Assembly (NCBI GenBank): GCA_964270895.1
Contig: OZ185441.1
DNA length: 64,000 nucleotides
Strand: one strand, 5' to 3'
DNA from: Podarcis filfolensis
Lineage: Eukaryota
Shown: piece after piece, positions 1,230-52,088 of the stretch
How positions within the stretch are numbered: the stretch's first letter is position 1
Layout: every line of letters begins with the position of its first letter
Position numbers and translations under genes: made by a program
The notes under the pieces: model-generated
What the model was told of the DNA's origin: nothing
Seen by the model: the letters and a program-made list of their open reading frames with translations, nothing else
The model's database searches: none

Positions 1230-3966
1230 TCCCTCTAGAAACTATAATGGAGACACAGCGCAGGTTTGGCCTTGTGATGCTACTTGCGCCACTATGCCAG
1301 TTTCCACTCCTGGCTCAGCCCCACCTGCATTTCCAGCCGAAACAAACACCTCACAGGCTTGCACAATAGCGGTGTGTCCAAAACCTTCCCTCACATAGAA
1401 AACTAGCACCCCAGGGAGAAGCTAGAGCACTTTGTCCTGATAGACAAGTTTTCTATGTACAATGATTATTTGATTTTATTTTTTGCATGGAAAGGCATTA
1501 AGTCTCATGAAGTGCCACCTGCAGTCAGAAATGGGACACTTGCCTCAGTAAGAGGGTAGGGAAGGAAATTGCTGCTCACTACTTAACAAAAGAAACAGGA
1601 GATGGGTTTTGTTGTTTGTGAGCAATGAGGAGATGGGGAGAGGAGAGGATCTTTTCCCTGGATACTTTTAATTAAAGAGAGAGGGGACACAGCCCTGTCC
1701 GTCTTACTTCAAATAACACATAGCCAAGGAAACACTCCTAACAAACCTATTGTTGAGAGAAATGTGACACAAATGACACTCTTGTGCTACAACTTGCCGT
1801 TGGTTTATGGTTGCATTCAGTGATGTGGGACACAAAATTTTCCAGGGCTTAATTTTTCTGCAGAAAAGTTTACATTTCATAAGTTCTTTAATAACAATGG
1901 GTGCCAATTGCAACTAATTATTAGACAAGCTTGACACTATCAAAGTTCATAGCTTTCTTTACTAAATACAGTACAAGTAAAAGTAAATGTGCTAAATGAA
2001 ATCACTCTCTAAGGGCATCAGATAATCACTATATGCAAATCACCCTATTTGCATGTGCAATTTTTCCTGGAAGACCCACACCACTGACTATGTATAGTTC
2101 ATCCTTAGAAAATAATAATGTTCATGTCTGGGGGTTTTTGTGGGGTTTTTTTGCATTCTGCCAGTTATAGTGCTCTCCTGGAACTGAAATCTATTTAATT
2201 ATTGCTATGTTCAGAAGTAGGTCACAAAGCTAAAATAGAACTGGAAAGTAGTGTAGCGTATGAGATGGCATTTCTTTACAAGCAAGGTATGTCAGAATCA
2301 CAAAATGCTTTTGCATCCTTAGCTGGAAGAAAGCTACCGAACACGGCGGGCGGGTGGCAGGGCTTACTTCTGAAAATACTTGGATAATACGTACCATATT
2401 GTGCTGTACATGTGCCAGAATGGCCCTCTAGTGCTTAGGAGGAGAAAAATGGCATTTCAACAACAAAGCTAAAAGTCACCTACCAACTGCTCTGGAAGTT
2501 GAGACTCGTTTCTGCCACAGATACCCTTCTGCTCCTTTCCACACACAACACGTTGTCTTAGGAACTGTCCCGTTGTGTTCAGTAGCAGCAAAGGGTCAGA
2601 GATTACTCAGTTTTAATTTTCCAGCTGAGTTCTTCCTCCCAACCTGCTTCTAGTTATTTCAGCAGAATTTCACAAGCCTTTTGAGGAACTTCCAACACAG
2701 GAAGATTACATAACGAAGAGCTCCAAACTGGGAAATAGTGAATCGGAAAGTGATCTCAACTTTCAAGTTCATTTCTGAAAAATAACAGGCAGAAGGCATT
2801 ATTGTCAAAAGTAGCCTAGCAGCTACATTTGTTTTACTAATTCCACATGTCCATCCTGCACACACTTCCTGAAAGTCAGGCTAGCTCCCGGGCAGAGGAT
2901 GGTATTTGTTAGTATTCCAGCCACCACCTTAAAGAACAACAAGAGAAGTAGACCAGACTACTCAACCCCAGGCTGGCTCCTATTCAGAGCAGACAGCATG
3001 TGGTTATTGTGGTATGAAAAGCAAACAGTGAAATCGCATTCCTGAGTGCTGCTTTGTACTGGATTTTGGGCTGTCCTGTGCTAATTTTTATGTTGGTGGT
3101 ACGGTACTGATAATGTTCTGATAGTGCTTTTAAGCTTATTTTTGTTTACATTTTTACCAATTTGTATGCTTTGTATATAAAACTCATGCAAATTCATGAG
3201 GATCTATGTAAATAATACTAGATCTGGTTTTTTATCAAGGCCCATAAAGGTTAATAAATGTAATTCAGTAACATGGAGGGAATGCCAAAATACAAGCAGG
3301 CACTTGTAGCATACAAATTGTGAGTGACTATACATGCAATGAATATGCATTTTCTGTTGAATTGATGGCAACCAGTTCCATCATGTTCCCTTCATAGATA
3401 AGGAGGGAGCGGGAAATGGACAGACTTGAATTTCCAGTTTCAACAGACCTGTGGGTTTTTTTTTTAATCTTCTGGGGTGGGGAAGTGAGCTGTCCACATA
3501 AATCAATTAATTTTAGGCTGGCATGACCACAAAGAAACCAAAAGAAACAACCAAGGATGTGGTTTGTTTGTGTTCTTTCTCACTTATGTCTTCATGTGTG
3601 TTAAAAAAATTAATGTGGGGTTTTTTTTTTTTTACCATTTAATCTGCATTGTCCAAGAAGGTATTTTGCTCCCTGAGGGGAAGGAAAAATGTTGTCCTAG
3701 TAGACACAGCTACTAAATTTCACATCAACACTGGCAAAAAGGTCAGCACACATGAAGGCAGCACGCTTGCTCAGGGATCACTGGGCAGGCAATGTGGCAC
3801 CCAGTTCTCTCCCCCTCAGACACCTCACAACTGTACATTGCCCAGCATCTGTGCCTGAGGCAGCCACTTCACTCTGCCTACTATCAAGGCTGGCCCTGCA
3901 GTAGAGCACAAGACTTCTGCATGCAGTTGGCTGCTGGATTTGGCCTGAAGTTGTTAGCCAATCATG

Positions 3967-4302
3967 GGGACACAGGTGGTGCTGTGGGTTAAACCACAGA
4001 GCCTAGGACTTGCCCATCAGAGGGTCGGCAGTTTGAATCCCTGCGATGGGGTGAGCTCCCATTGCTCGGTCCCTGCTCCTGCCAACCTAGCAGTTCGAAA
4101 GCACGTCAAAGTGCAAGTAGATAAATAGGTATCGCTTCGGCGGGAAGGTAAACGGTGTTTCTGTGCGCTGCTCTGGTTCGCCAGAAGCGGCTTAGTCATG
4201 CTGGCCACATGACCCGGAAACTGTACACTGGCTCCCTCGGCCAATAAAGCCAGATGAGTCAGTCACTACTGGACCTAATGGTCAGGAGTCCCTTTACCTT
4301 TA
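3967..4302 (+). mobile_element. Sauria-type (tRNA-derived, Bov-B-like tail) SINE
   Basis: Head gggacacaggtgg..tgtgggttaaacc, B-box-like ggcagtttgaatccc, tail ctttaccttta. TSD tgttagccaatca at 3952-3964 and 4304-4316. Three further copies in the window. Confidence 0.9.
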
Positions 4303-5338
4303 CTGTTAGCCAATCAGGTTCTTGATCGCCAAATATATACTGATTTTGCCAGCTTTCATCATGTCATGGTTGATGTACCTAATTGTCCTAAAAAGGGATT
4401 TTATACAGCCAGTGACCACTGGTATTTTTTGTTACAGATGCAAGAGAAGACAGACGCAAAATGCCTTTGTGATGCTTTATTCATCTTATGATGAATAAGC
4501 AATACTTCGATACACACACATTATTCTAATAATCAATCCCATCAACTGGTTGATCAGGCCAATCAGCTGGTAGGAATCACACTGAACCAGCAGTTGCTGA
4601 GGTTAGATAACGTGGGGTCCCTTTTCAAATGTATACTGTCTATGTGTATATCCTAATGGTGAACACTGGACTTTGTATATGATTTTTATCAAAATGCCTT
4701 GCTTAGGCTGCTCTAGTGTGGATAAGCCCTCAGCCTTCTAATTCTACTTACTTTCAGCAGTCAAAATGTTATGCTTCAGTTAACCTAAGCTATTTTAGCC
4801 ATTTCACCATCGAAATTCCCCTCTTCTATGCTAATATAATTCTCTATTCCTTAACTTAACATATCAATATTTCTTTCATATATTAAAGTTCTTTCCCATA
4901 GCTGGTATGATAACCAAGCATGATTTATTTAGAGGTCCCATCAAAGAGCATTATTTCTGTACTTCTTTATTTCAACATCATCCCCACCCCAACCAAAGCA
5001 TTAATATGAGTAGATTGACGCCTTTGCTGCAACCTGTGGGGTGCTTTCTTTGGGGGAGTTTTGTCTGTAACTCAAACCACCTATCCCGCCCTAAAAATAT
5101 TTGACTTGTAGCATTAACAGTAGGCTTCACTGCAGGGCTATCATAAGCTACCCTCACAATATATCCTTTCTTGCCACAGGGCTACTGAAGTTCACAAAAA
5201 GGAAAAGGAAAATAAACTTACGTTGCTTCATGGGCGTAGTCAGGATTTTTTTGGGGGGGTGCAGAACCGACATGGTTGGTCAGTTAGTAAAGTATTTCTA
5301 TCGTTTTACTTGATCGCGGGGAAGGGCAGTGACGTGTA

Positions 5339-5564
5339 CAGTGGTACCTCGGGTTAAGTACTTAATTCGTTCCGGAGGTCCGTTCTTAACCTGAAACTGT
5401 TCTTAACCTGAAGCACCACTTTAGCTAATGGAACCTCCTGCCTCCGCTGCGCTGCCGGAGCACGATTTCTCTTCTTATCCTGAAGCAAAGTTCTTAACCC
5501 GAGGTACTATTTCTGAGTTAGCGGAGTCTGTAACCTGATGCGTATGTAACCTGAGGTACCACTG
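5339..5564. mobile_element. Tc1/mariner-type MITE
   Basis: TIRs cagtggtacctc...gaggtaccactg flanked by TA on both sides. A reverse-oriented copy is at 11276-11488. Confidence 0.88.
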
Positions 5565-5959
5565 TATTGCAGGGTTGTGGCAAACTGCCCTCTCAGCCTT
5601 AGTTAGACCCCCCCCCGCCAGTCCCAATATTAAACACTGGCCTGCGCTGCAGGGCTGTTGTAAGTCACAAGCTTTCCTCCAAACCCACCCTTCCTGTCCT
5701 CAGTAAGGGGCTGAGAGGGACTGTGTGTGCATTGGAATAGGCAGTGTAAATTATAAGACCCGAATGACCTCATCTCTTTGCTCCTATCTCGCTTCCAAAT
5801 GATGCTAAAGAAAAACCTCGAATTCCTAAGAGCATCCCTCACTTCTGCCCCGGGGAGACGGTTGAAAATAACATCGCAATGTGACAAGGGAACTCATTCA
5901 TCCAGGGAGCTCGACGACTCTACACTTTTTGGGTCTATAGTTCCCTTCATTGAGTTTTT

Positions 5960-6528
5960 CCTTTCCCGGACGGAGTGCGCAGGCGCACTGAGCCGATAGT
6001 TGAAACATCCGCCAACCTGGCTGCCCCTCCCTCTCCTTACTTCCTTTCCTCCGGCCGCAACCCGGTCGGATAACTCTTGAGTTTGTTGTCCTGGCAACCG
6101 CGCGGAGTTGGTCTGTGCCTGGACCAAGGCCTCCGCCCGGCGGCTCTGCTTGTCCATCTCTCTTGTCATTCAGAGACCTTCCTCCTCCTCCTCCTCCCGG
6201 CCTCGCTGGTGTTGGCCCCTGAGAGGCAGGCCCGGCTCCTCTGGGCGGCAGCCCCTTGCTGGGAAGAGGGAGAAGGCCCTTGAGCCGTGGCCTGCGCGGG
6301 GGGAGCCATATCATTGAGTCCATGTCAGGAAAAAAGGCAGGGTGCAAATAAGTATATAATAATAATTGCACGCAAATGTGTGGCTCTGTGGACACGAGTT
6401 GGGAGCCGACAGTAGTGACCGGCTGCTGGTCCTTTTAAAGGGACAGCTCCGCCCCCATTTTTAGGAGGGGTGCTCTATATGTTGCTACCTGCTGCCTAAG
6501 GGGGCAGCCCAGGCTCAGAGCAGGAGCT
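5960..6528. promoter_or_regulatory. CpG island / TMCO6 promoter region
   Basis: CpG-rich. NRF1-like TGCGCAGGCGCA at 5976-5987 and GC box ctccgccccc near 6447. Lies directly upstream of the TMCO6 coding start. Confidence 0.7.
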
Positions 6529-9500
6529 ATGATTTCTCTTGGGTCCGTCCCGGGTGCTGAAGCAGCGGCAGCTGCTGCCTCCCATGGAGTCGCTGGTCCA
6601 AGGAGCTGGAGAAAAAGCCGCTGGGGGCCACGCAACTGCAGCGTGGAGGACCTGCGGACTTGGAGGAGAGAGCAAGAGTCAGGTTTGTGTGTGACTTCCT
6701 TCCGCAGCTTTATTGGGACGAGAGAGGGAGTTGCATATTACTTTGCTCTGTGTGGCAGTCTCATTTAACAAGCTCTTTTTGCTCCTTGTATTGCGGCAGT
6801 TTGATAACAATGTGCTGCTTTGTTTGCAGCTCTACGGAGTGCGCGGAGGCATCAGCAGTTGATCAGCAAGCGGCTTTTGTGTGAAGACACCTTGATGGAT
6901 GAAGGGCAGGTTGGAATGGACAGTGGGGTAGCAGCTCCTTTCTCTGAAGAAGAGGTAGGAAGATCGTCCATTTTTTGAAGTTGATTGGGTCTTAAAGGTA
7001 AAGGGACCCCTGACCATTATGTCCAGTCGTGACCGACTCTGGGATTGCGGTGCTCATCTCGCTTTATTGGCCGAGGGAGCCGGCGTACAGCTTCTGGGTC
7101 ATGTGGCTAGCATGACTAAGCCACTTCTGGCGAACCAAAGCAGCGCACAGAAACGCCGTTTACCTTCTCACTGGAGCGGTACCTATTTATCTACTTGCAC
7201 TTTGACGTGCTTTCGAACTGCTAGGTTGGCAGGAGCAGGGACCGAGCAATGGGAGCTCACCCCGTCATGGGGATTCAAACGGCCGACCTTCTGATTGGCA
7301 AGTCCTAGGCTCTGTGGTTTAACCCACAGCGCCGCCCGGTCTTAGATATTAATAAATGCAGTGCATTTAGTCACGCAACCCTTTGATTTGTTTAGAGATA
7401 ACTGATATTTTTGATTTATAGCTAGCTTATGATCACAGTATATGAAAGTGCCATGCGAGCGAAGCGGTACAACGTCCAAGTAATATTTCAAGTTGATGTC
7501 TTTTTTCTTTCAAAAGAGATGTTAAATAGTTAAATTTCATAGCCCACCGCACCCTGGCCTATGAGACTCCAGGATTGTTTCAGCCCTTCATACCACAGAG
7601 GTGGACAGCAGCAAGAGGCTTCCACCTGAGATTTGCTTTCCCTTCAAGTTCTGTCACTGATTCAGTATTGCTCACTAGCAGATTTCACAGCTGCTGAAAA
7701 ACATCCAAAGAGGAAAAGAAGACAGGGCAACATCTCTGCGTCTCCTTCGACAAGGACTACAGCACAGAGAAAACCAGCAGAAATTCATCAGGTTAGTTAA
7801 TGTGCACTTGACCTGCTGATGCCTATTCCGGGGGTGGGGGGTGGGGTGCTTGTCTGTGTTGAAGTAAATGGAACTATTTAGGTGCAGTACAGCATCTTAC
7901 CTTGTGCAGAAACAACCCAACGTAAGTGGAGAGAGGTCCAACTTCCTTGTTAGCTGGATTTCTATTAGATGTCCATGACCTTGAAAGTGTGGCAGCTCCA
8001 GAGATTAGATGAGCCCCCCAGAAGAAGAGAGGCACTCTGTAGTGCACAGAAATGCTCTCCTCTTCTTCATCCAACAGGGTGTTGAATGCTAGTCTGTTAC
8101 AGTTTCTGTCCTCCCTGCTGTTTTCTGGGTTGAGAAGAGGGCTGAGTATACAAGCCTCCCAAGGACAAACTTTCTTTTAGATTTTGGATGTTTGTTTTCA
8201 CTATTCTTTGGCTGTGGCTAGTGTGTGCTCAACCTCCTGTTTTTTTAAGACAGACTCTAACTTTGAATTGATAACCTGAACTAACTTGTGGGGGTCTGGT
8301 GTGGGAAGAACGGGTAAACTTTATGTTCTGTTCCAGTCTGGGTTAAATAAACTTGCCAATGTTCAATTCCAGTTTGGGCTGGGTGGGAAATAAGTTGTCA
8401 AGTTGTTTAGGTTTGTTAAGTGCCATTCAGTTGGAATTCGCCTGATTTCCTGGGCCATGCAGATGAACAGTAATATCCCATGGGATATTTTTTGATGAGT
8501 GGCTATGTCAATGTAAAAGATAAATACGATTATAACAATGATAGTAGGAGCAATAGTGACAACTACTAGGCTATTGGGATAGGTCCAACTTCACACTTAC
8601 TTTCCTTCAGTAGAACAGATAAGTAAAAAGAGTATGTGATTTGGCAGAGGACTGCATAAAGATGGTGTTTTAATTTTGTAGGCTGGAGGGCAGTATGCGT
8701 GTGCTGATTGGTCTCTTCACTGGCAATCTGGCAGATCTGCAGATGGATGCAGCTCGCTGTTTACATGAACTCTCCCATTCCAGTGACCCTGATGTGGTTG
8801 AGGCGTGTTTGCCGGCAACCTCCTACCTCTTGACGTACCTCTCTGGACACAGTGTAGCCCTAATGGTAAGATCCAGGCTGGCGGTACTTGGCTGTTCCAG
8901 CTTCTGGTAAGGCAAATGAAGTGTGACCTTTTGCCTACACCAGGCTCCACGTTACAGAGTATGAAAACTATCCTCTCCAGCATACTCTTTATTTTTTGAG
9001 TTTAAAAAGTGGCTCAAGATGGAACAAAGTACATTGCTATTGACTTCAACTTAATTGGGTTTTATCTGATAAAACAGGCCCTTTTGCATATTTGAAGCAA
9101 ATGTGCCCCAGCTTAGGCCACTAGGTACCAGAAAAGTGTGGATTAAAGGTCTGAAGAACATGGGAAAGGTAAATGTGAAGACTAGAGAAAGTTGCGGCTG
9201 CCTGGGCCTTTTGCAGTGACATGAACTTGGCTGCAAGTACATCCTGGAATGAGGGAGTGATTGTAGTCCGGCTATAGTTGGAAGAATCATTGTAAGGTTC
9301 ATTGGATAGGAGGTCTCCCATTGAGGGGTGGTAGCAAAGGCTCATATGGATGCTGACCTCTGACAATTGGTGTAAAGTTATTGATCACATTAACATTATT
9401 TTCAGAAGTATATGTTTCCATTGCCTATATTTCTTCTCGCTGCTTGAGCTGTTACATCTCTGCATCCCCAAATCTTCTCAGCTACTCTTCGCTCCAGTGG

Positions 9501-24900: not shown

Positions 24901-27900
24901 ATAACTCATCACCCCAATCATTGGCCATGCTGGTTAGGGCTGATGGGAGTTGGCTACCAAGAGGGCATCAAGTTGGCTACCCCTGCTTTTGAGTGTTCAA
25001 AGCATTTCACATACATTATATCAGTCCTTACAGCAATGAGAGATAAGATAGTATTATCCTAAATTGTTAATGAGATGGGCAGAGACTGAGAGAACGCTAC
25101 CATATATGACTGGGGCAAAATTTGTTTTGGGGATTTTGCAGCTCCTAGGTTTTGGCAGTATGCTACCTAGCTCTCAAAATCTATATGCACATCTTAAAGC
25201 ATCTTCAAAACTTACTCGGAAGGCTTTCATGGTCACCTTTGGCTTCCTTTGACTGAGCTAGTTGTTTTATTAAATGGCATGAAATGTTCCTAGCACACTC
25301 TCAAAGTTGGGCATTCTGTGAGCACAATTTTTTGTCCTGTTTAGGATGCCAAGAGAGTACAATGAAGATGAAGATCCAGCTGCTCGGAGGAGAAAAAAGA
25401 AAAGGTAAATTGAGAGATTTTGATCCAAAGCTTTCCTAAGGCCGTGATGTTTCCTTAATGTGGAGGAAAAATCCTAAATAAAAAACCTTGCCAGAAAAAG
25501 TTGGGCTCTTGGCTGCCTTCTCGCTAAGAGAGGGATACCCAGTGATTAGTTGACCTTAAAAGAAATATTGTGCCTTATTTATCCCCATTGAATTACCTTC
25601 TGTATAGTGGTGGTAATGGACATCTTCTGAAACACCTGGAAACTTAGTTTTCAGTGCTTCTGCCATCTTGACTTTTACCCTTGTTGTAGTTCTGAGATTA
25701 TACTTGTGACTTCAGTCAGTGATTCACTTAGAGCTTGGTGGGGTATTGCTTATTATCTCTGAAGCTGTTAAGAGAACTGGGAATTCTCTTATAATACCAG
25801 GGCCTGAATATTTCAGTGATAATTGGTTTGTTTTTGTCACGCCAGCTACTATGCAAAGCTACGCCAACAAGAGATTGAGCGAGAGAGGGAGCTGGCTGAG
25901 AAATACAGGGATCGTGCAAAGGAGAGAAGAGATGGTGTCAACAAGGACTACGAGGAAACCGAGCTGATCAGCACAACTGCTAACTACAGGGCAGTGGGAC
26001 CCACTGCAGAAGCGTGAGTGCAGTCACTGCTTTTGCCTTTCTGCTTTGCAATACAATGTGGCTCTGATGTCACGGAGTTCTTTTTATTGCATTAGGGACA
26101 AATCAGCTGCAGAAAAGAGGCGGCAGTTGATTCAGGAGTCCAAATTCTTGGGTGGTGACATGGAGCACACTCACTTGGTGAAGGGTCTGGATTTTGCTTT
26201 GCTACAGAAGGTAAGCCAGATGATACAATCAATAGTAAATCAGCAATTCTCATGTTGGAGAACCTCTTCCCCATGTGTTCAGTGAGATCTCCAATAATGT
26301 ATGTTGTTGATAGCTAAATTGCTATTCCCTTTGCCACCATTCCTTATTTGATATGTAATATCTGTCCCTTTAAGGATTTTTTACTTCTGTTTGATCAAGA
26401 ACACTATGATAATTATGTAGTATTAAACTTGCCTGGAATTTTGGAATAACTCTGGATTATGCTCTTTGCTTTAAGAGCTAATTAATTTTCTGCAATGCTT
26501 TTTCTGAAGAACGTCTTTCATAAATCTTCAGTGTCTTTTATTGGCTGCTAGAGATTTGGTTTTTAAGAGATTGTTGTTGGTTGTTAAGTTATGCAGTTGC
26601 CCTATAACTGCATAAGATAAACTACTTCATATATGTGGTCGCCTGGTACTTCCTCTGTCTGAATGGCCACTGACTGTATTTTTCAGATGCAAATAAAGCA
26701 ACAGGTGGGGGAAATTTGACTTTATTCAGCCTCCACCTTGTTCTGGTGATTTATCTCTTCCTGAAGAGATTAAGGCTATTATAAATAAATAAACAGTACT
26801 GTTGATTTGTTTTTCAGTTACAATATTGTTTATAAATTATTTATAGTTTAGAGTAGTATTTTTTAAGTCTTCATTGAGTTTTCCAACATACATTGTATAC
26901 AGAGCACACATGGTTTGATAAAAATCACACCCACCCAAAATTAGTAACAAAACCAGGAGTAACATAACACTGACAGTCTCATACAAATAATTTCAGGTTC
27001 ATATATTCTGTGTAGATCACCAATTGATACTGCCACACAGGTAACTCCAGAACAACATACATTCCTTTGCCAACGTGTAAGATAAAGGGCATCTAAACCT
27101 TATCCAATTTGTTGGGTTTTGGGCCTCTGCTAGCATTTTGAAGAAAATTTCTCTCTGGTCAGGTGCGTGCTGAGATTTCCAGCAAAGAAAAGGAAGAAGA
27201 GGAACTGATGGAGAAGCCCCAAAAAGAAACCAAGTGAGTGGTAACAAGACAAACTCTGGCTTGTGACTTTCTAGCTCAGGCATAGGCAAACTCCGGCCCT
27301 CCAGATGTTTGGGACTACAGTTCCCTTCATCCCTGACCACTGGTCCTGTTAGCTAGGGATGATGGAAATTGTAGTCCCAAACATCTGGAGGGCCGGAGTT
27401 TGCCTATGCCTGTTCTAGCTTAACAGAGAATGTAGTCTAGAGAAGAGGCGTATTATATCTATTCATTTTGTTTCTCTTTTAGAAAAGATGAAGATCCAGA
27501 AAACAAAATTGAATTCAAGACTCGTTTGGGTAGGCATGTTCATATATGTTCTATGAAGCTGGGTTGCAATGTTGTGACTATCATGGTACCATGAGCAAGT
27601 AGCTAAAATATTCTAGTGTCACCAAATCCCCATCTTTCCTAGGTCGAAACATCTACCGAATGCTATTCAAGAGCAAGGCATATGAGCGAAATGAGCTCTT
27701 CCTGCCAGGGAGGATGGCGTATGTGGTGGATCTTGATGATGAATATGCAGACACAGATATTCCTACCACCTTGATCCGAAGCAAGGCAGATTGCCCTACC
27801 ATGGAGGTATAAGTTATGAATGCTTTCTCTGAATGAGCAGGTGCTTTTCTTGTTGTGTGTATGATGAGGCACGCATTATCTATTGGGGTCTGATACCTTT

Positions 27901-34331: not shown

Positions 34332-34754
34332 TACTTGTATAAATGTTACACAAATCAGCTGTATTTGAATAATATTTACATAACTTAAAACCATCTACCA
34401 GGCATTGGTGTGGAAAACTGCAGAATAAATCTGGTCTTTTAACCACACAGTTGAGATACTCATCTGGCTTTTATTATAAGTAACCCTGTTAGGGTTAGAA
34501 ACTCAAACTGGCAAGTACTCAATCAGGCCAGTTCCCTCCTCCTCTGGACTTTTCCTTTAACACCCTTGACATTCCATACTTATTGGATGTTCTCAGCATC
34601 TTCAACGAACAGTTGGGCTTTTGGGCTGACATACATGACAGATAATACAGGTGCTTGGGTGCCTGTCCCACTCTTGGCAATCGGTGGGCAAAGTGGTGGC
34701 GGGAGATGAGCCATAGTTTCACTTGGTCAACAAAGTTTCTTAAAAGATCTAGTT

Positions 34755-34842
34755 ACAGGTAGGTAGCCGTGTTGGTCTGCCGTAGTCGAAACAAAATAAA
34801 AAAATTCCTTCCAGTAGCACCTTAGAGACCAACTAAGTTTGT
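34755..34842 (-). mobile_element. Penelope-like element terminal fragment (truncated before the hammerhead core)
   Basis: Near-identical to 51296-51380 (ggtagccgtgttggtctgcc...ccttccagtagcacctta..gaccaactaagtt). The family assignment is inferred from the hammerhead motif in the longer copy. Confidence 0.65.
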
Positions 34843-35397
34843 TAAATCTGTTCATTTGGTCATGAAAAAGGAAGGCTGAAGCACACTGGCTGCTTCCTAA
34901 TTCTTGGGCTTTTGTAGAAAGGCAAACACTAGAAGTTTAGATATGGAAGTGTATAAATTAAAAGTACATTCATTTCAATGAAGTTGAGGCAAAAAGATCA
35001 ATTTCTGTGGGATCTGGAGCACCACCGATTCAGAGCTGTGGTGTGAGAAAACACATCCTTGAAGGACACAAGAGGCTGCTTATAGGGATAAAGTATCCCC
35101 CTTTATCAAATCCCCACACAAACTTCATTTTCATTTTCTCCTAGCGCAAAGGTGAAGCAAATTTAGACTGATACCTTGTCCCACTGTTAGCGTGATTAAA
35201 TAGTTCATTTGGAACTGCATGAAAGTCAATTGAGCACATAAATTCCAGGTAGGGGTACTTTGTGACCAACAGCTGACAATATGAAAGCTAAGAGGGTGTG
35301 GAAAATTGGGTGAAGGATCTAATGTATATGCAACCAAATGAGATGTATCATGAAGTGTCATGAAACGCTGGGTGGGAAGTCAAATAGATTTATTGTA

Positions 35398-40800: not shown

Positions 40801-42162
40801 TACTTCCCTCTTTGGGGCTCGTTTATTTCATGGTTCCTAATTATGCAGTGTCTTGGAGACGCCTTCACTAGAACAATGAGCTTCTTCTGCTTATCATCCT
40901 GGAGAAGGGGTGTTAAGACTGCAATCCCAGGCACACCTTTGTGGGATTAAGCCCCCTTGAACAGAATAGGATTTCTGAGTAAACCTGTATAAGTCTGTTT
41001 GAATCCCAGCAGGAGAAAAAGCTTAGAGTAAACTTCTTAAAAATGCATTATGGCGTGACAATTTACTAGATATTTATGTTGATCCCAAAATAGCAAGCAA
41101 GTATGTTGGCTGTTGATCACAGTAACAGGCAATGCAGTTTCATACTGGAGAACATTACATACAGTGCTTTTTTCTAAATAAAATGTTTAGGGGTACTCTC
41201 ATTTTCCTACTCATATAGAAATACTGACCCTCAATGAGGCCAATCTTAGATTCACAAAATGTTTAGGGATATGCGTACCCCCAGAAAAAATCACTGAATG
41301 TATACGTTAACAGATTCTTGAAGAATTATCTGTATGTCATTATTTGCAGATTAACATTTGTCTTCAATAAACTTCTGAATAACGCTGGGACAATGTCCTT
41401 TGAATATTTCTGGAAAGTCTAATCAAATAAACAGGACTGCTTTTATACTCTGTGGTGTAGCTGCTCATGGATTTCGATGTGAAGTTCTGGCTATTCTGTT
41501 TCAGAAGGGAGTCAGCAAATATTCCCTTTAAATTGCTGAGTATATCCAGTGATCTGTGTGTTCATCTCCATTTTCTAGAGCTCTTTACGGTGTCCAAAGA
41601 TAAATCCATTCATATTCTAAGTGTGGAGGAAGGTCGTCTCGTGACCAGGTTCTCCAAGGCTCACAAGTAAGCATTGGGGACTTCTTGATTGTTTGCTTTT
41701 ATAGGAGTGCACTTACTCCTTTTCCTCCAAGGAGCTCAAGGTGGTGTGCCTGGTTCTCCCCCTTCACATTTAATCCCCACAGCAACCCTGTGAGACAGAT
41801 TAGGCTGGGAGGACATGACTGGCCTTAGGTCACCCACAGAGTTTCAAGCCCTAGTGGGGATTTGAATCTTGGTCTCACTTCCTAGTTCTTCCATCAAGAT
41901 GGTACTTCCAGTAGCCAGCAGGAAATCCGCAAACCTTCCTTGCATAAGCATCCACAGGACTGGACTGCAAGGAAGGTTTGCGGATTTCCTGCTGGCTGCT
42001 AGAAGTACCATCTTGCAAGCGCAAAGGGTTGCTACACCTGCATCATTGCAAGCAGTCAGCCTCCTGTCATCAACCATCCTGTGGCCTTCATGGCATGTCA
42101 TTGCAGGGTGGTTGTGACCTAGAAAGCCCTACACAGCTTAGGTTCCGTGTGTGTGTGGTTAT

Positions 42163-42530: not shown

Positions 42531-45048
42531 TATATAAAGTGTGTATATGTGTACTATATATAGAGTCTGTATATGTGTACTATATATTTATAGTACACAT
42601 TATATATAGTATATACACACTATAACCTTTCACCACCACTTGGGGGGCAAAGCAGGGCCAGAGATTGTGTGACCTGGGGAGAGTTCTGATGGCCAAACCA
42701 AGAAGCCTTAAGGGCTGCCTTTTGGCCCTAGGCCAGGTTGCCCACCGTTGCTTTAAACCCTGCCTGTACCTCTATTGTTATTCCCTTGTACACTTCATTC
42801 AGGGTGAGGAGGGAATACTGGGAGCAGGAAGTTGGAGAGCGTTGACCCCTTGAAGTTAATGGACATGACTGACAGGTTCACTATTTTCATCTGCAGCTGG
42901 GCCCTCATCATGGTTGACTACAACCCATGATTAGGGCCCAAGTGCAGATGAAGTAAGTCTTGACATCTTTTAGGGAGGAGAAATGAATTTTCTCTTGCTC
43001 GTGTGGCTCCCATGAGAGGAGTGTACGGGGAAAGAATTTTCTTCGTTCATAGGATCAGAAGAGCCTCTCTATCACGCCCCTCATTCTGCCCTTTAGCGCA
43101 GTTCCAGTTTGCTTGCCTTCTTCATGGTCCCTCTGTGGGGCTGTTGAGACCTTGCAGAGGTCTCTGAGAGGGAATAAGGCACTTGTGTAATATAGTGGCT
43201 ATCTGTAGCGTGGATTCTGCTGCTACAACTCTGGAATTTCCACAGTACTGCTCTGAACAGTCTGCTGGTGATAGATGAGCACTTGTTTGCCACAGGAGAT
43301 GACCGTGGGGAACTGAAAGTGTGGGATCTGCGCAAAGGCACCTCCATTATGGATATGAAACAGCATGAGGAATATATCAGTGACATGGCTGTCGATGGGA
43401 ACAAGAAACTGCTGCTCACCACCAGGTATTCCTGAATTCTCCAGTTTAAACAAAGGGATTAGTGGGCTTGATTTATTCTCCCTCGGTGGTGGTGGAGACG
43501 CTTTGACTGCAGTGGGCCACTGAAATGGATATCTATTGATATCCTGAAATGTACAGATGCTTCTGGGGGGCAGAACACCAAACTAACTGGAAACACTTGG
43601 AGCCGCAAGTGATTCTGCTGCCTTGGATGCTCCCGATAAGTAAATGATCACTGTGTTCCATTCTGTTTCTTGCAGCGGAGACGGAACTATGGGAGTCTTC
43701 AACATCAGGAGAAGGCGCTTTGAGCTGCTCTCAGAGCCTCAGAATGGAGACCTGTCAGCCGTCGCTTTGATGAAGGTCAGCCCTATTCCTCAGCGGCCCC
43801 TGAGGAGCCGCTGCTGCAGAACTGATAGGGACTGATAAGCTGAACATTTCTGGGAGCAGCGACTTAAAAACATGTTCTTGCCCCCAAAAGTATGCATTGA
43901 TGGGCAGCATAATATTCCTATTTCATTGGCATTTATTTGCTTTAGACCAAGACAGAAAAAGGCCTTTGGTGGGTATGTCTTATGGTTCTTAGCTGATGGT
44001 GAGGGGCAAGGCTTGCCAGCACCTTTAGGTGGGCACCATTGCCATTCTGAGAACGAGGGAGGTGTCCATGGTGAGTTCCAGCCCCCCTTTTTCTAGGAAA
44101 ATAGCACTGGTGAGGGGAATCATGACAGTGCTTTTTTAGGGTTAAACAGTATTTATTTCTTGTTTGCTGCTCAGAGAGGAAAGAAAGTGGCCTGTGGCTC
44201 CAGCGAGGGAACCATTTACCTCTTCAACTGGGATGGTTTTGGTGCTACTAGTGATCGGTTTGCACTGAAGGCGGAGTCCATTGACTGCATGGTTCCTGTA
44301 ACAGAGAGCATTGTGTGCACAGGCTGCACTGATGGAGTCATCAGGTGAGAGGGCATTGGGTTGTTTGTCAACCTGGGAACCACAGGCTTATCCTGAAACC
44401 TGTGAGTATAGGGCGATATACAAATTACAGTGCACATCTCTAGAGGATTGTTGTTAAGATTTGCATTCCCCCCCTTTTAAGCTTCATTCTTGCCCCGATT
44501 GTGGTTGGTTTATACAGCTTTGTATAGTTTGTTATGGTAGCATCTAATTGTTTTGCAATAATTATATTCCATAAAGCAATTAAACCTTTAAAAGGAATTT
44601 CGAGCCCTAGAAAGATTCCTTTCCCAACCCTCACCGGAGCATCTTAAAGTGCAGGTAGAATGAATTTCAGGAGCTGTTCTGGAGGAGCTGGCTTTTCCTT
44701 AATCAGGCCTTTTCCTGTTGTTTCAGGGCCGTGAACATCTTGCCCAATCGGGTGATTGGCAGTGTTGGGCAACATGTTGGGGAGCCTATTGAGCAGCTAG
44801 CCAAAAGCCATACTGGCCCATTTCTGGCCAGCTGCGCCCATGACCAGAAGGTGAAGTTCTGGGACATCTCTTCGCTTAACTCAGTCATTGTGGACGATTA
44901 CAGAAAGAAAAAGAAGAAAAGTGGGCAGCTGAAGTCTTTGAGTCTCAAGGCATTTGGTACCGGGGAGGATTTCTTTGCAGGCTTGAGAGAGGAGGCAGCA
45001 GAGCCAAAGGATGAAGACTCCAGTGGCACAGAAACGGATAGTGACTAA
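36981..45048 (+). CDS. WDR55: WD repeat-containing protein 55, 8 coding exons, about 375 aa
   Basis: Exons 36981-36998, 39855-40003, 40695-40795, 41579-41666, 43246-43425, 43676-43775, 44175-44344, 44727-45048. Total 1128 nt, in frame. Peptides [64 protein letters not shown] match human WDR55. Confidence 0.95.
37260..37760 (-). mobile_element. L1-clade LINE 3' fragment
   Basis: The reverse strand reads as an L1 ORF2 end ([14 protein letters not shown]-like) plus an AT-rich 3'UTR, with a T-rich tail at the left edge. No TSD identified. Confidence 0.6.
37810..38410 (-). mobile_element. L2-type LINE 3' end with (TAA)n tail
   Basis: (TAA)n at 37810-37863. Reverse ORF with [18 protein letters not shown]...KTELF, typical of an L2/CR1-group C-terminus. 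Confidence 0.75.
41162..41296. mobile_element. hAT-like MITE
   Basis: cagtgcttttttct...agaaaaaatcactg terminal inverted repeats. Confidence 0.65.
41690..41890 (-). mobile_element. MIR/Squam3-like SINE
   Basis: Same family as 10400-10590. Confidence 0.6.
42163..42222. repeat. Compound (TA)n(GA)n microsatellite
   Basis: Seen directly. A second compound (TG)n(TA)n lies at about 42450-42527. Confidence 0.95.
42237..42447 (-). mobile_element. Bov-B/RTE LINE 3' end
   Basis: ttgttgttgtttagtcgtttagtcgtgtccgactcttcgtgacccc...catctcgtcctctgtcatccccttctcctt...aacatcagggtcttttcca is the reverse-complement 3' end typical of Bov-B. Confidence 0.8.
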
Positions 45049-46625: not shown

Positions 46626-49600
46626 TTACACCATTGGGCATCCTGTTGGAAAGAGAAATAGGTTAGGCTTTAGGGTTGCCAACATACAGAAAAGCAGTCA
46701 ACACACTCAAAACAGGGAACAACCAGGAAGGCACCTATTCTGCAAACATACAAGGCAGGAAAACTCCTTTTTTGAAGTGCTTGGAGGCTGAAAAGGCCTG
46801 GCACTGGCCTCCACTTGTCTCACCCTCTATCCTTATTGTTATCTCTGTCTCCTAGGGATACCCCAGAGGCATTCTCTCTCCAGGCAGCCTAGCCTGGAAA
46901 GTTGAAAGAATTTGTAGTGCGAGGGAACTCCGGCCAGGTTCCAATGTTATCTAGGGCACCCACAGGCACTGTGTTGTAGGCTCAAGCAAGTGAAGCAAAG
47001 TTTTCTACCTCCAGCTTTAACTTACCCCTCTCAGCCCTGTGCTCTTCTATATAAAATGCTGCCACCATTCATTAGCTTCAATCTCTCAGTGTAGCAAGTT
47101 TCATATTCCTATCACTTTGTGCTGGGTGAAAAGAATAGGCATCCTTCTTTGACAAAAGATTTACTGCTTAAAGAGCTGCTAATTTAGGTAGGTTCTACCT
47201 CCTTATGTCAATTTTATAATGGTTAAAAGCCCCATGACCTAGCTGAAGATTTCACGTGCCTTGCTCACCATCTGAGAGGCCTGAAGGCATCCTAGTGTCT
47301 CTTTGCTGCCTTCAGCAAATCTGAAGCACTGCTTCCAAGATGAAGTTGTGCAAGGACACTTACCCAGAGCTTTGAGTAGCTGCAGTGCCACTGCATTCTT
47401 GGCCTTCTCATGCGCCTCCAAGCCAGAACGTTCTGGCTTGATCCAGATAAACCCACTGAAAGGTGATGGATATTTAGGTATCACCACTTGATACCAGAAC
47501 TGTAACCATCCTTCATGATTCTTTTGCATACATTTTGTAAGAAATACAGGGAGCCCCAGCTGCCGTTCCTTGCATTGCAAATTCAGGTAGTCCAGCACAC
47601 TGCCCACTGCGGGTTGCACAGGCCCAGAAGGTGCTTTGTAGGGGACATCTCTGTGGGGGAAATTGGATGGTGGAATCTCTGGAAAGCCCTGAATGGAGGC
47701 ACTGTGGAGTTCCTGTTTTATATTTGGTTTTAGCCAATCCACTTCAATGTCATCTCCACAGAGGCACAAACTACCTGCGGAACAGAAGAAACAATTTAAA
47801 ATTTGGTTCAAATATAGGCCTCTCCTCACAGTATTCCACCTGCAATTTACAGCAACGCAGGAAAAAATAAAAGTAGACTACATATGAAAGAGACAGCTTA
47901 AAAATATATATATGAATACTAATTGCATTGCTTGCATAATTTGAGTTTGTATGTATGCACTAGTGATAGCTCCAAAGATCTCATCTACATTAAGTGATGT
48001 AATAGTTCTCATAGTGGTTAATATTGTCACTGAAATTTCCATGAAGGTGAAATTGACAGGTAACTAGGTGACCAGTGCCACTTAATAATAATAATTTCAT
48101 TATTTATACCCCTCCCAGCGGCTTCCAGAAAAATATATTTTTAAATAAAAAAGCCAAACATTAAAAACTTCCAGATATATGGCTGCCTTCAGATGTCTTC
48201 TAAAAGTTGTAAAAGTTCTTTATCTCCTTGACACCTGAAGGGAGGGCATTCCACATGGAGGGTGCCACTGCCAGGAAGGCCCTCTGCCTGGTTCCCTGAA
48301 ATTTCACTTCCCGCAGTAAGGGAACTGCCAGAAGACCCTTGGAAGTGAACCTCAGTGTCTGGGCTGAATGATGGGGGTGGAGTTTGGCCCCTGTACTTGA
48401 GTGGTGGATACAATGAAGAGCCAGCTGCACCCCATGCTCCCAGCCTCTATTGCCTATGGTACATGAGACTTTACTGCTATATTTAGGAGACAAACCTTCC
48501 ACAAGCGCTTTCCTGGCGATTGCAGCAGCCTGGTGGGAGCTGTATTTCACCTCTGCCAACTGCCTCTCCCTTCTGAAAGGGCTTGGGTGCAAGGAAACAC
48601 TCAGGACTCCGGCAGTAAGTTCCTGCAGCATTGGAAGAAAGTGTCCCTCTCTCACAGAGAGAGACAAACCATCAATGGAGAGCTCACACTTGTCAGTACT
48701 TCTGCAGACCAAAATGGGGTGGCCGGCCTGGATTTCAAAGGCGTTGAGCACGGCAATAGCATCCTGGGCACTGCGTCTGTTTGCGTATTTTGCATAGGCA
48801 AAGCCACGGTTAAGCCCGCTGAACGTCATCATGAGACGAAATTCATAGAGCCTCCCAACACTCTGGAAGAGAGGAATTAGTTTATCCTCATATATATCCT
48901 GTGGAATCTTCCCTATGAAAATCTCAGAGCCAGGTGGTGGAACACTGCCAGTCCAACCTGCGGAAAAAGAAAAAGACGACGCATAATTGACTTGACTTTT
49001 TTAAAAAAATGTTCCATACAAGGAAAACAACTCAGCAGTTGTACAGAAAAGAAAAATAGCAGCTGATGGTTGTCATTTTAGACGTTCCAATAAAGGAATC
49101 AAATGAAAGTGTCTCTCCATAAGGTTCCATGAGTTGATGGAGGGTGAAAATAATGCTTGATTGTCTTAAAGTAAATAAAAGGATTCCATGTCCTAACCGT
49201 CTTGGCATTTATACCAGCTTCATCCCCATAGAAGATTCTACAGCAAAGGGAAAGACTTCAGGCAGTAGCGTACGTGAATGCAGGCCTTTAGTTTTTAGCA
49301 ATTTTTTTTTACAATTCTGTACAATAAGCAAGTAAAATAGAAAGACTTCATGGAGCTTCTATGGGCTTGGGCATTAGCAGGGAAATCCAGGCTCCCCTCA
49401 CCCACTTTGGGGGGACTCCAGCAACCAGTAATGACAATTGAAAGGTGGTAACCTTTCAATTGCCTCCAAGCAGCTGAAGTACATACAAGTATTTCTAAAA
49501 GTGATCCTTGGGTCACAGATCTGTGAATCCCAGGCGGATAATCTTCCACCTACCTGGTGGGGGGCCACCGTATTTCCTCTGGCCATTGATCTGTACCAGT

Positions 49601-49949: not shown

Positions 49950-51000
49950 AACAAGCCGCTCGGGGGAGGAGTGCAGCTAACCCGGCCAGCTTCGGCCATT
50001 GAAAAAGGTAATGCCCCTCCTGGGCGCGTCCCTCCACGCGGGCGGATTCCGAGCCCGGAGCGCAGAAGTTGAGCAGGTTTTGAAGCAGCGAAAGCCTAAT
50101 CGAGTTTTTCTTTTTTGGGGGGTGGGAGGTGGGGAAACCGGACCAGTACCTCCGTAATCAATCACGGCCAAGAGCGGTCTCGCGAAGACACGTGTCAGTC
50201 GTGAAACACACTGCGCACCCCTTATTTCAGAAACCAAGAGCCTGTTCCCAACTCCTTCGGCGCATTATTATTTTTTTTTGGGGGGGGGGGGGGGGAGTCC
50301 GTTTGCGCGAGAGGACCTCGTGCCGCGCAGCCGACTCCCCCCGCATAACATTGAACTTGCATGGCGAGGGAGGGAAGTAGCGACGGCGGCGCTCCAAAGT
50401 CAGCCCGCCTTTAAGCGCCACGAGATTCTCTCCCAGGTAAGAAGAGCATCCGCAGGTCCGTCTTTGCGCCAGGCGAGCTCTCCGCCCGCCCAAGAACTAG
50501 ATTTGGCTCAGACTCCCCCCCCCCCCATTTCTCTTCCCTCCTACTGGAAAAAGCTAAGAGGCTTCAGTCTACCAACCTGCGCGCCATCCATAGCGCCCTT
50601 CTCGGCCAACGCCTTCCCAGCCACACCCTCCTCCTTGGCGGGGGCGGCCGCTCCTTTTCTAGCCCGGGGGGGAGTTGCTCCCCAGGCCGCTTTCCTCTGC
50701 TGATTGGTAGATTAACAACCCGCCCCCGGGGCGGGGGTCCTGCCTGGTCAGCGGGATCCCTTGCGCGCGCGGCAGGCGCCGTCGGCTTCTTTTGCAGAAA
50801 GTGCGTGAAGCCCGCCCTTCGCTTCGACCCCGAGATCGTTCCCACCACTTTCCAATCCTTTGATTAGCTAGCCCAGACCATTCACACGTGACGCAGCCAA
50901 ATAATAGCGGACTAGGGCCATTAAGCGCGCCTTGCATAGCGCCGGCGGCCTGCTAAGTTCAGGCGCCCGGAGAGCAGCGGCGCCCCCTTGCAGGCTGAAC
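49950..51000. promoter_or_regulatory. CpG island upstream of DND1
   Basis: High CpG density. GC boxes (ccgccccc/ggggcgggg near 50720-50738), CCAAT boxes, and E-box CACGTG at 50885-50890. Confidence 0.7.
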
Positions 51001-51295
51001 TCCTTGGGGTTTTTTTTCCGTAATAAAGCAGCACAGGACCACATTTAAAAATATTCAGAGCTGCTGGTGGGCTATTTATTGAACAGCCTTATGTTGCTAA
51101 CGCGGCAAATTGGGAGGGTTTCTTTTGTTGGTGGTGGCAAAGGCTGAAAGGTCAACTCCTCCCCTCCCATATTATACAGAAATTCAACAGGTGACTATTT
51201 TCTAGGGAGAAAAATTTGACCAATGTCTCACCCTTCCCTGTGGCACAGCCTGCCACCATTGTTGTGCTGACCAGAGAGAGAACTCCTTTGAAGGA

Positions 51296-51425
51296 ACAGA
51301 TAGGTAGCCGTGTTGGTCTGCCATAGTCAAAACAAAATTTTTTTTCCCTTCCAGTAGCACCTTAAAGACCAACTAAGTTAGTTCTTGGTATGAGCTTTCG
51401 TGTGCATGCACACTTCTTCAGATAC
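51296..51425 (-). mobile_element. Penelope-like element terminal fragment carrying a hammerhead motif
   Basis: Shares sequence with 34755-34842 and additionally contains a CTGAAGA-stem-GAAA core. PLE pseudo-LTRs are known carriers of minimal hammerheads. Confidence 0.7.
51388..51425 (-). ncRNA. Minimal type I hammerhead ribozyme motif
   Basis: Minus strand GUAU CUGAAGA A GUGUG-CAUG-CACAC GAAA G C U C|AUAC. Helix I GUAU/AUAC, helix II 5 bp, palindromic AGCU helix III, CUC cleavage triplet (cut between 51392 and 51391). The motif is seen directly; activity is not shown. Confidence 0.78.
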
Positions 51426-52082
51426 ACATATATGCGCCTTTGAAGGAGGGACTCATTCAGCATGCAATCCACTATGTGTGAAAGACACCTTCACCCAATA
51501 CTTAAGAATTAAAGAGAACAGGAAGGAGAGATAAGCCTGACAAGCTGTGAAAACTCCTGAAATATTTGCAGGATAGATTGTCCACACCTGAGTAAAGCAC
51601 CATTATTGTTAATTGAAATACCTGTGAATCACTCACAAAGGCTTCACCAACTTCACTATTCTGCCCAGTCCACACCAGCACCCCCCTTTAAATATATCAT
51701 GGTAAAGATTGTAAGGGTTGCTGTTGCTTACATTTAACTGTACCAATCTGGAGCTCACCTTAAAGACAAGCAATTTTCATACAAGTTTGGCTGGGCACAA
51801 GGCCCATGTTCACTCTTTTGAAAACTTTGGCTATTCTTCTGTTATTTTGCTTAGGGAGAAGTAAGCAGTTCCTGTGAGTAATAATAGGGCTATCAGGTCT
51901 GCTCCTGAGGCAACACCTGGCCAAAGCTAAAACCAATTATATGACATGCAGAGGACTGGTAAAATAGCACCCCTGCTGTGAAATGTGCTTAATTTGAGAA
52001 ATGCAATGGTGGCTGCGCATCATGTTTGTGTAGCTGAAAGGGAAAACATGAACACAGCAGAAAGCATGGGGTTGTAATAAGC

Positions 52083-52088
52083 TTTATT
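52083..52088 (-). terminator. Probable HARS1 polyadenylation signal AATAAA
   Basis: tttatt on the + strand, about 350 nt after the HARS1 stop codon. Confidence 0.65.

Follow-up and report, generated by a model that had tools for sequence, protein, structure and literature searches.

A very young, unfixed Penelope-like insertion carries a minimal hammerhead ribozyme motif, most likely an inert passenger, between HARS1 and DND1

Minimal type I hammerhead ribozymes are found in the pseudo-LTRs (pLTRs) of metazoan Penelope-like elements (PLEs), including those of a turtle and of snakes (Cervera and de la Pena 2014, PMC4209133). One Schistosoma minimal monomer tested in that work was inactive and the dimers were weak. 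The hammerhead of an anole PLE requires the protein encoded by the ORF of the element, unprocessed RNA is the main template, and RNA-seq gave no ends at the cleavage site; the template has to include the first 172 nt of the ORF for the anole protein to act on it (PMC11167929). According to PMC8557442, the role of hammerheads in Penelope elements has yet to be settled.

We analyzed a stretch of 64,000 nucleotides (the window), in which the minus strand reads as a hammerhead motif from position 51425 to 51388:
51388..51425, minus strand: minimal type I hammerhead (helix I of 4 bp, helix II of 5 bp, helix III reduced to AGCU), from sequence and descriptor search.
The catalytic core CUGAAGA is followed by one extra A, helix I is formed by GUAU and AUAC, and helix II is closed by a CAUG loop; next come the GAAA box and the AGCU palindrome. 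The cleavage triplet CUC places the predicted cut between 51392 and 51391. The motif and the cut thus stand as the initial annotation had written them, and so does its assignment to the Penelope-type minimal type I hammerheads, since the structural features are present and the motif lies in a PLE pLTR. These features are the CUGANGA and GAAA boxes, an NUH triplet and helices I and II, together with those listed for PLEs in PMC4209133, i.e., an extra nucleotide after position 9, a G10.1-C11.1 pair and a palindromic remnant of helix III. By its sequence, the motif is a hammerhead in every structural respect that was checked, and its build matches the published PLE minimal hammerheads. The annotation had also proposed that helix I was truncated at the insertion edge; we rejected this, since long copies of the element share all four pairs and the window copy retains 6 native bases upstream of C3.

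A generic minimal-hammerhead descriptor matched the window once, at 51425-51388, and gave no matches in 100 block shuffles. Rfam covariance models returned no match at E values up to 10 within 51200-51600, and no hammerhead was among the 24 matches of an Rfam scan of the whole window. The search with hammerhead models suggested earlier was therefore positive for the descriptor and negative for Rfam, and the minimal form apparently lies outside the Rfam models. Compared with shuffles, the fold had z-scores that do not stand out (-0.44, -0.88 and +0.77), so fold stability is no evidence either way. Helix II with its loop (51400-51413) is a perfect 14-nt palindrome, which could offer a second pairing route for two copies. 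The predicted two-copy fold is dominated by this self-complementary stretch, the AGCU duplex contributing only -2.5 kcal/mol, as computed by a program that cannot represent a true double hammerhead.

The hammerhead forms the front end of a 141-bp insert (51296-51436) bracketed by identical 11-mers. The parts of the insert, its flanks and a related fragment elsewhere in the window are as follows:
51437..51447: upstream copy of the target-site duplication (TSD), 11 bp, from flank comparison, the empty-site joint and fold prediction; predicted pairing joins its minus-strand CUUCA to the UGAAG within the catalytic core.
51428..51436, minus strand: 9-nt filler at the 5′ junction, with no match to element sequence upstream of the core, from comparison with the element.
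51296..51427, minus strand: element-derived part of 132 nt, which starts 6 nt upstream of C3, includes the A/T tract and stops where the tail does, pLTR matched to a long copy (L081).
51296..51327, minus strand: tail of ~32 nt that holds the element ATG (51324) and the ORF up to codon 9 (MADQHGYLS), from sequence; the concept of a tail follows PMC11167929 and PMC3846280.
51285..51295: downstream copy of the TSD, 11 bp, from flank comparison and the empty-site joint.
34751..34843, minus strand: sister pLTR fragment of another subfamily, lacking the hammerhead core, from comparison with the element.
The 132 nt differ from the pLTR and ORF start of L081 only within the A/T homopolymer tract, and the insert ends 29 nt into the element ORF. 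The window copy is a single arm: an inverted partner is missing, and the copy starts downstream of the TATA motif. A non-LTR retrozyme array, which would consist of tandem head-to-tail units each with a hammerhead, was rejected, since we see a single TSD-flanked copy and the family has an ORF-bearing master element. The sister fragment has no clear TSD. It does lack the core, as had been noted, yet it does not stop just short of it: it begins 38 nt downstream of C3, which is 8 nt beyond the cut site, and belongs to a different subfamily.

The 1.507-Gb genome contains 6,023 exact copies (3,038 + 2,985) of the 34-nt core (51421-51388), a density of one per 250 kb, and the reversed control does not occur. 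As can be seen from long copies, the hammerhead-bearing sequence is the pLTR of a Penelope-like element. One of these, L082, has an intact ORF of 910 aa with Pfam matches to RVT_1 (E 4.6e-12) as well as a C-terminal GIY-YIG domain (E 3.5e-05); the pLTR with the hammerhead comes after the ORF stop, and matching sequence precedes the ATG. A pLTR adjoining a single ORF for RT and C-terminal GIY-YIG is the arrangement of an EN+ PLE. The linker between RVT_1 and GIY-YIG carries a CX4CXXC motif at residue 770. According to PMC8557442, a CX2-5CXXC linker between RT and EN is a mark of Neptune and Nematis, and vertebrate occurrence (bioRxiv 10.64898/2026.07.22.740005) favors Neptune over Nematis. The element would thus be a Neptune-type PLE, a call that draws on the linker and not on an RT tree.

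Other PLE hallmarks are found as well, i.e., partial tandems, inverted 5′ copies and an optional tail in the family, and a tail with an 11-bp TSD in the window copy. Many family copies have inverted 5′ partners or stand in partial tandems, as is known for PLEs (PMC8557442, PMC3846280). Read by eye, family copies mostly end at the T-tract or ~30-40 nt beyond it, and these positions match the optional tail that has been tied to two internal RT start sites (PMC11167929). Several copies deserve mention in their own right. The 910-aa ORF (L082:2032-4761, minus strand) has an inverted, 5′-truncated partner upstream, and the same ORF at L081:625-3405 is interrupted by one in-frame stop just before YIDD. 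Some copies (in L079 and L082) have C rather than A at the variable core position 7, which marks a sub-lineage. Among the places listed, repeats of ~190 bp arranged head to tail and including the ORF start (G000:C12:55904650-55905259, four units, and G000:C5:25797762-25797982) are possibly retrozyme-like arrays. One fold-back insertion is met eight times with the same flanks (L001-L008, G000:C1:87000-258000), i.e., it lies inside a segmental duplication or array.

The 5′ junctions were mapped in a set of 85 copies whose anchor lies downstream of the ribozyme, namely 84 of the first 100 places listed and one neighbor; 14 places in a segmentally duplicated block and 2 from one further locus were omitted, and both arms of inverted pairs as well as six rows from one locus are counted. 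Junctions at -8 to 0 relative to C3 account for 43 of the 85, with peaks at -6, where the window copy also begins, and at -4. A further 23 lie upstream of this interval and 19 inside or after the core, and none of the 85 falls in the cut-site zone (+28 to +34). By exact genome-wide counts, 8,117 copies of the stretch from +30 to +61 compare with 7,842 copies of that from +23 to +61 (96.6%), which runs 7 nt across the cut, and 6,023 copies of the stretch from 0 to +33 compare with 1,992 of that from -11 to +33 (33%). The copy junctions carry no cleavage footprint, and there is no step at the cut site. Since 96.6% of copies run through the cut and 43 of 85 start at -8 to 0, the copies appear to derive from uncleaved RNA.

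A TATATAG motif at -37 is followed 30 nt later by the A (-7) of an initiator-like TCAGT, a distance that fits the consensus spacing between TATA and initiator. These observations are most simply explained if reverse transcription runs off the 5′ end of uncleaved, pLTR-initiated RNA, with a start site that is placed from the DNA alone. A splice acceptor (TTTCAG before the core) is a less likely source of the junction peak. Penelope of D. virilis does have a TATA-less internal promoter and an intron (PMC2377424), the end of which abuts helix I (PMC4209133); however, the 43 copies share no common upstream exon. A pile-up of junctions before the hammerhead was not found in the PLE-hammerhead literature consulted, the supplements of which, e.g., Fig. 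S2 of PMC11167929, may hold it.

With run-off from uncleaved RNA as the preferred source of the junction peak, the window copy can be given a plausible history. The element protein would nick the DNA with an 11-bp stagger, reverse transcription would begin internally, at the tail end (51296) some 30 nt inside the ORF, and the short leader of an uncleaved, pLTR-initiated RNA would be copied to its 5′ end, which likely lies just before the hammerhead. The junction would then be closed with 9 filler bases, and the copy would lose the promoter and retain the whole ribozyme.

In three of three longer contexts, fold predictions pair the native sequence 10-25 nt upstream of C3 (taken from the copy L084) with the catalytic core and the start of helix II; RNA starting at -7 does not contain this upstream sequence. 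Because of this predicted pairing, we tentatively put forward a further reading, which we regard as rather unlikely: the hammerhead, which would sit at the extreme 5′ end of pLTR-initiated RNA, immediately after a TATA and initiator, might act as an off-switch on the element mRNA rather than as a processor of tandem precursors. The upstream stretch would block it in read-through (tandem) RNA and release it only in promoter-started RNA, and only uncut RNA would be copied. If so, a cut would remove the cap and the first 37 nt.

The neighborhood of the insert contains the following features:
52083..52088, minus strand: AATAAA, likely the HARS1 poly(A) signal, from sequence, its use being presumed; HARS1 is identified by Pfam on the upstream exons.
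50001..51000: CpG-rich region, likely the DND1 promoter, from CpG density.
48497-48958 and 47365-47775, minus strand: DND1 exons with RRM and DSRM, respectively, from Pfam.
On the minus strand, HARS1-type exons upstream of the motif match Pfam tRNA-synt_His and HGTP_anticodon, and DND1 exons downstream of it match RRM_1 and DND1_DSRM. Judged by the C-terminus, 52496-52437 is likely the last HARS1 coding exon. The AATAAA (52088-52083) precedes the motif by ~660 nt, and CpG density rises below ~51000, ~400 nt after the motif. Neighbors, strand and distances are therefore those given in the initial annotation. Between the insertion and the DND1 CpG island there is a second AATAAA (51075-51080, minus strand), a potential backup poly(A) signal for HARS1 read-through. 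Within the 30 kb next to the window, a CpG island at ~69-70 kb is likely the HARS1 promoter. Short hairpin-forming stretches at 27303-27386, 41912-41997 and 42878-42956 of the window gave sub-threshold matches to miRNA families and are probably repeat-derived.

Four of the 24 listed DNA runs were compared at the insertion site (X3, organism A; X6, organism B; X14, organism C; X15, organism D), the best-matching runs X1 and X2 being outside the four. In three of them, X3, X6 and X15, which come from three studies, a single contig runs from 51284 straight on to 51437, leaving out 152 bases and sharing 11 letters between the two sides, which is exactly the empty site; such contigs show that the empty allele is present and not that the filled allele is absent. 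X14 gave no contig across 51172-51452. X3 shares its organism label with the runs that best match the window, although it comes from another sample and study, and the window is assigned to organism A by word share. X3 and the window differ by ~1% (20 letters in about 2,010), so X3 may represent another lineage. Family contigs number 3,579-9,278 in each of the four runs. The family is thus common to all four runs and the insertion at 51296-51436 is not. Outside the homopolymer tract, the window copy has no substitutions relative to family copies, and hence shows neither age nor a sign of selection. The insertion is very young and unfixed, and is no conserved feature of the HARS1-DND1 gap. Absence from close relatives had been named beforehand as counting against a role at this locus, and the site is indeed empty in X3, X6 and X15, the run labeled organism A among them.

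Folding predictions depend strongly on context. In the isolated motif, helices I and II form, with a pair probability of 0.64-0.96 for helix I. With at least 30 nt of the real upstream flank, the pair probability of helix I is predicted to be at most 0.02 in seven of seven window contexts, because the core loses its UGAAG to pairing with CUUCA of the target site and the 5′ strand is taken up in a hairpin with the filler. Native element contexts are also often predicted to misfold. For native RNA beginning at the putative transcription start, helix I reaches 0.76-0.88, 0.0 and 0.39-0.45 at 47, 77 and 137 nt, respectively, so the prediction is length-sensitive. No second core that could serve as a dimer partner in cis is present in the window or in the adjacent 30 kb. 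In HARS1 read-through RNA, the lone monomer would probably be too slow to affect termination.

We consider it very probable that the locus holds a very young, unfixed 141-bp insertion of a Neptune-type PLE whose hammerhead is an inert passenger, because of the TSD, the near-identity to the pLTR of long copies, the thousands of identical cores and the empty site in related samples. This agrees with the fallback of the initial annotation, an inert remnant, which fits best. Against it stand a fully intact core, the sense strand and a position in the usual termination zone; in addition, the family, if transcribed, could supply many trans partners, and the element protein, which by analogy with the anole element may help cleavage, is encoded intact in the genome. 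An alternative is a new, still segregating allele with an incidental effect, in which HARS1 read-through RNA is occasionally cut, in trans with element RNA or with help of the protein, and interference at the DND1 promoter is slightly altered. An intact core in sense orientation, with the AATAAA 660 nt behind it and the CpG island 400 nt ahead, an autonomous element in the genome and the protein-assisted cleavage shown for the anole PLE (PMC11167929) are all compatible with such an effect. We nevertheless judge it improbable, since the core is predicted to be sequestered by its flank, no cis partner is found in the window or the adjacent 30 kb, and the copy has only 29 nt of ORF, while the anole protein, of another clade, needed 172 nt. 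Moreover, the 5′-OH left by a hammerhead cut is a poor substrate for yeast Rat1p and has been proposed to short-circuit Xrn2, letting the polymerase escape (PMC2702688), so that a cut could hinder rather than help termination.

Least probable, and largely refuted, is a domesticated terminator or insulator guarding the germline gene DND1. Position and strand speak for it; the site is, however, empty in three of four runs, so that the fixation and conservation at the orthologous site that mark a domesticated host ribozyme are not seen in X3, X6 and X15, and the copy shows no divergence from its family that would indicate age or selection. Chance is also sufficient for the position near the HARS1 end, since 0.2% of 1.1-kb same-strand intervals are expected to hold a core, i.e., ~44 placements downstream of gene ends if 20,000 genes are assumed. 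The role in HARS1 termination and DND1 shielding suggested earlier is thus unsupported, given the empty site, the chance placement, the lack of a cis partner and the flank predicted to block the fold.

With the passenger insertion as the preferred reading, the locus itself matters little, as a single unfixed copy among about 6,000; it is useful as a clean example and a test case. The genome-wide counts give population-scale support to the in vitro result that uncleaved RNA is the template and put the likely transcript start directly before the ribozyme. With a germline promoter only 400 nt away, a filled/empty polymorphism at this site would permit an allele-specific test of any effect on host transcription. 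If the off-switch reading were true, thousands of promoterless stubs, the segregating one beside DND1 among them, would provide natural pairs of filled and empty alleles with which to ask whether host RNA is ever cut by minimal hammerheads in vivo.

The motif shares with those of PMC4209133 a helix I of 4-5 bp, the extra nucleotide lying between position 9 and position 10.1, G10.1-C11.1, the palindromic 15.2-16.2 and the lack of a real helix III, and in both cases most copies are dispersed singly and come from truncated elements. Helix II has 5 bp here and 7-8 bp in the Schistosoma families, and the present family, with 6,023 exact cores, is very uniform; in this it resembles the young D. virilis case and differs from the variable families of the same paper. 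PAc (Poseidon_Ac) of Anolis carolinensis (Frangieh et al. 2024, PMC11167929) is likewise a lizard PLE with a hammerhead at the junction of pLTR and ORF, an internal RT start giving an optional tail, and uncleaved RNA as the template, as determined in vitro there and suggested by the copies here. PAc belongs to the Poseidon clade and has its ATG inside stem II, whereas here the ATG lies ~97 nt after C3 and the cysteine linker is of the Neptune/Nematis type.

The pLTR of Pen2a from Adineta vaga (Arkhipova et al. 2013, PMC3846280) has a TATA and an initiator-like motif and the ORF start at the pLTR end, as here; its 31-bp tail, TSD of 8-10 bp and, in many copies, inverted 5′ partner have their counterparts in the present family, whereas the window copy is a single arm that starts downstream of TATA. 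Intronic hammerheads of amniotes are conserved across species. Host-associated amniote hammerheads (intronic or in the Clec2 3′ UTR; PMC6765202) resemble the present one in being near or in a host transcript; in contrast to those conserved cases, the motif between HARS1 and DND1 is unfixed, multi-copy and located beyond the poly(A) signal.
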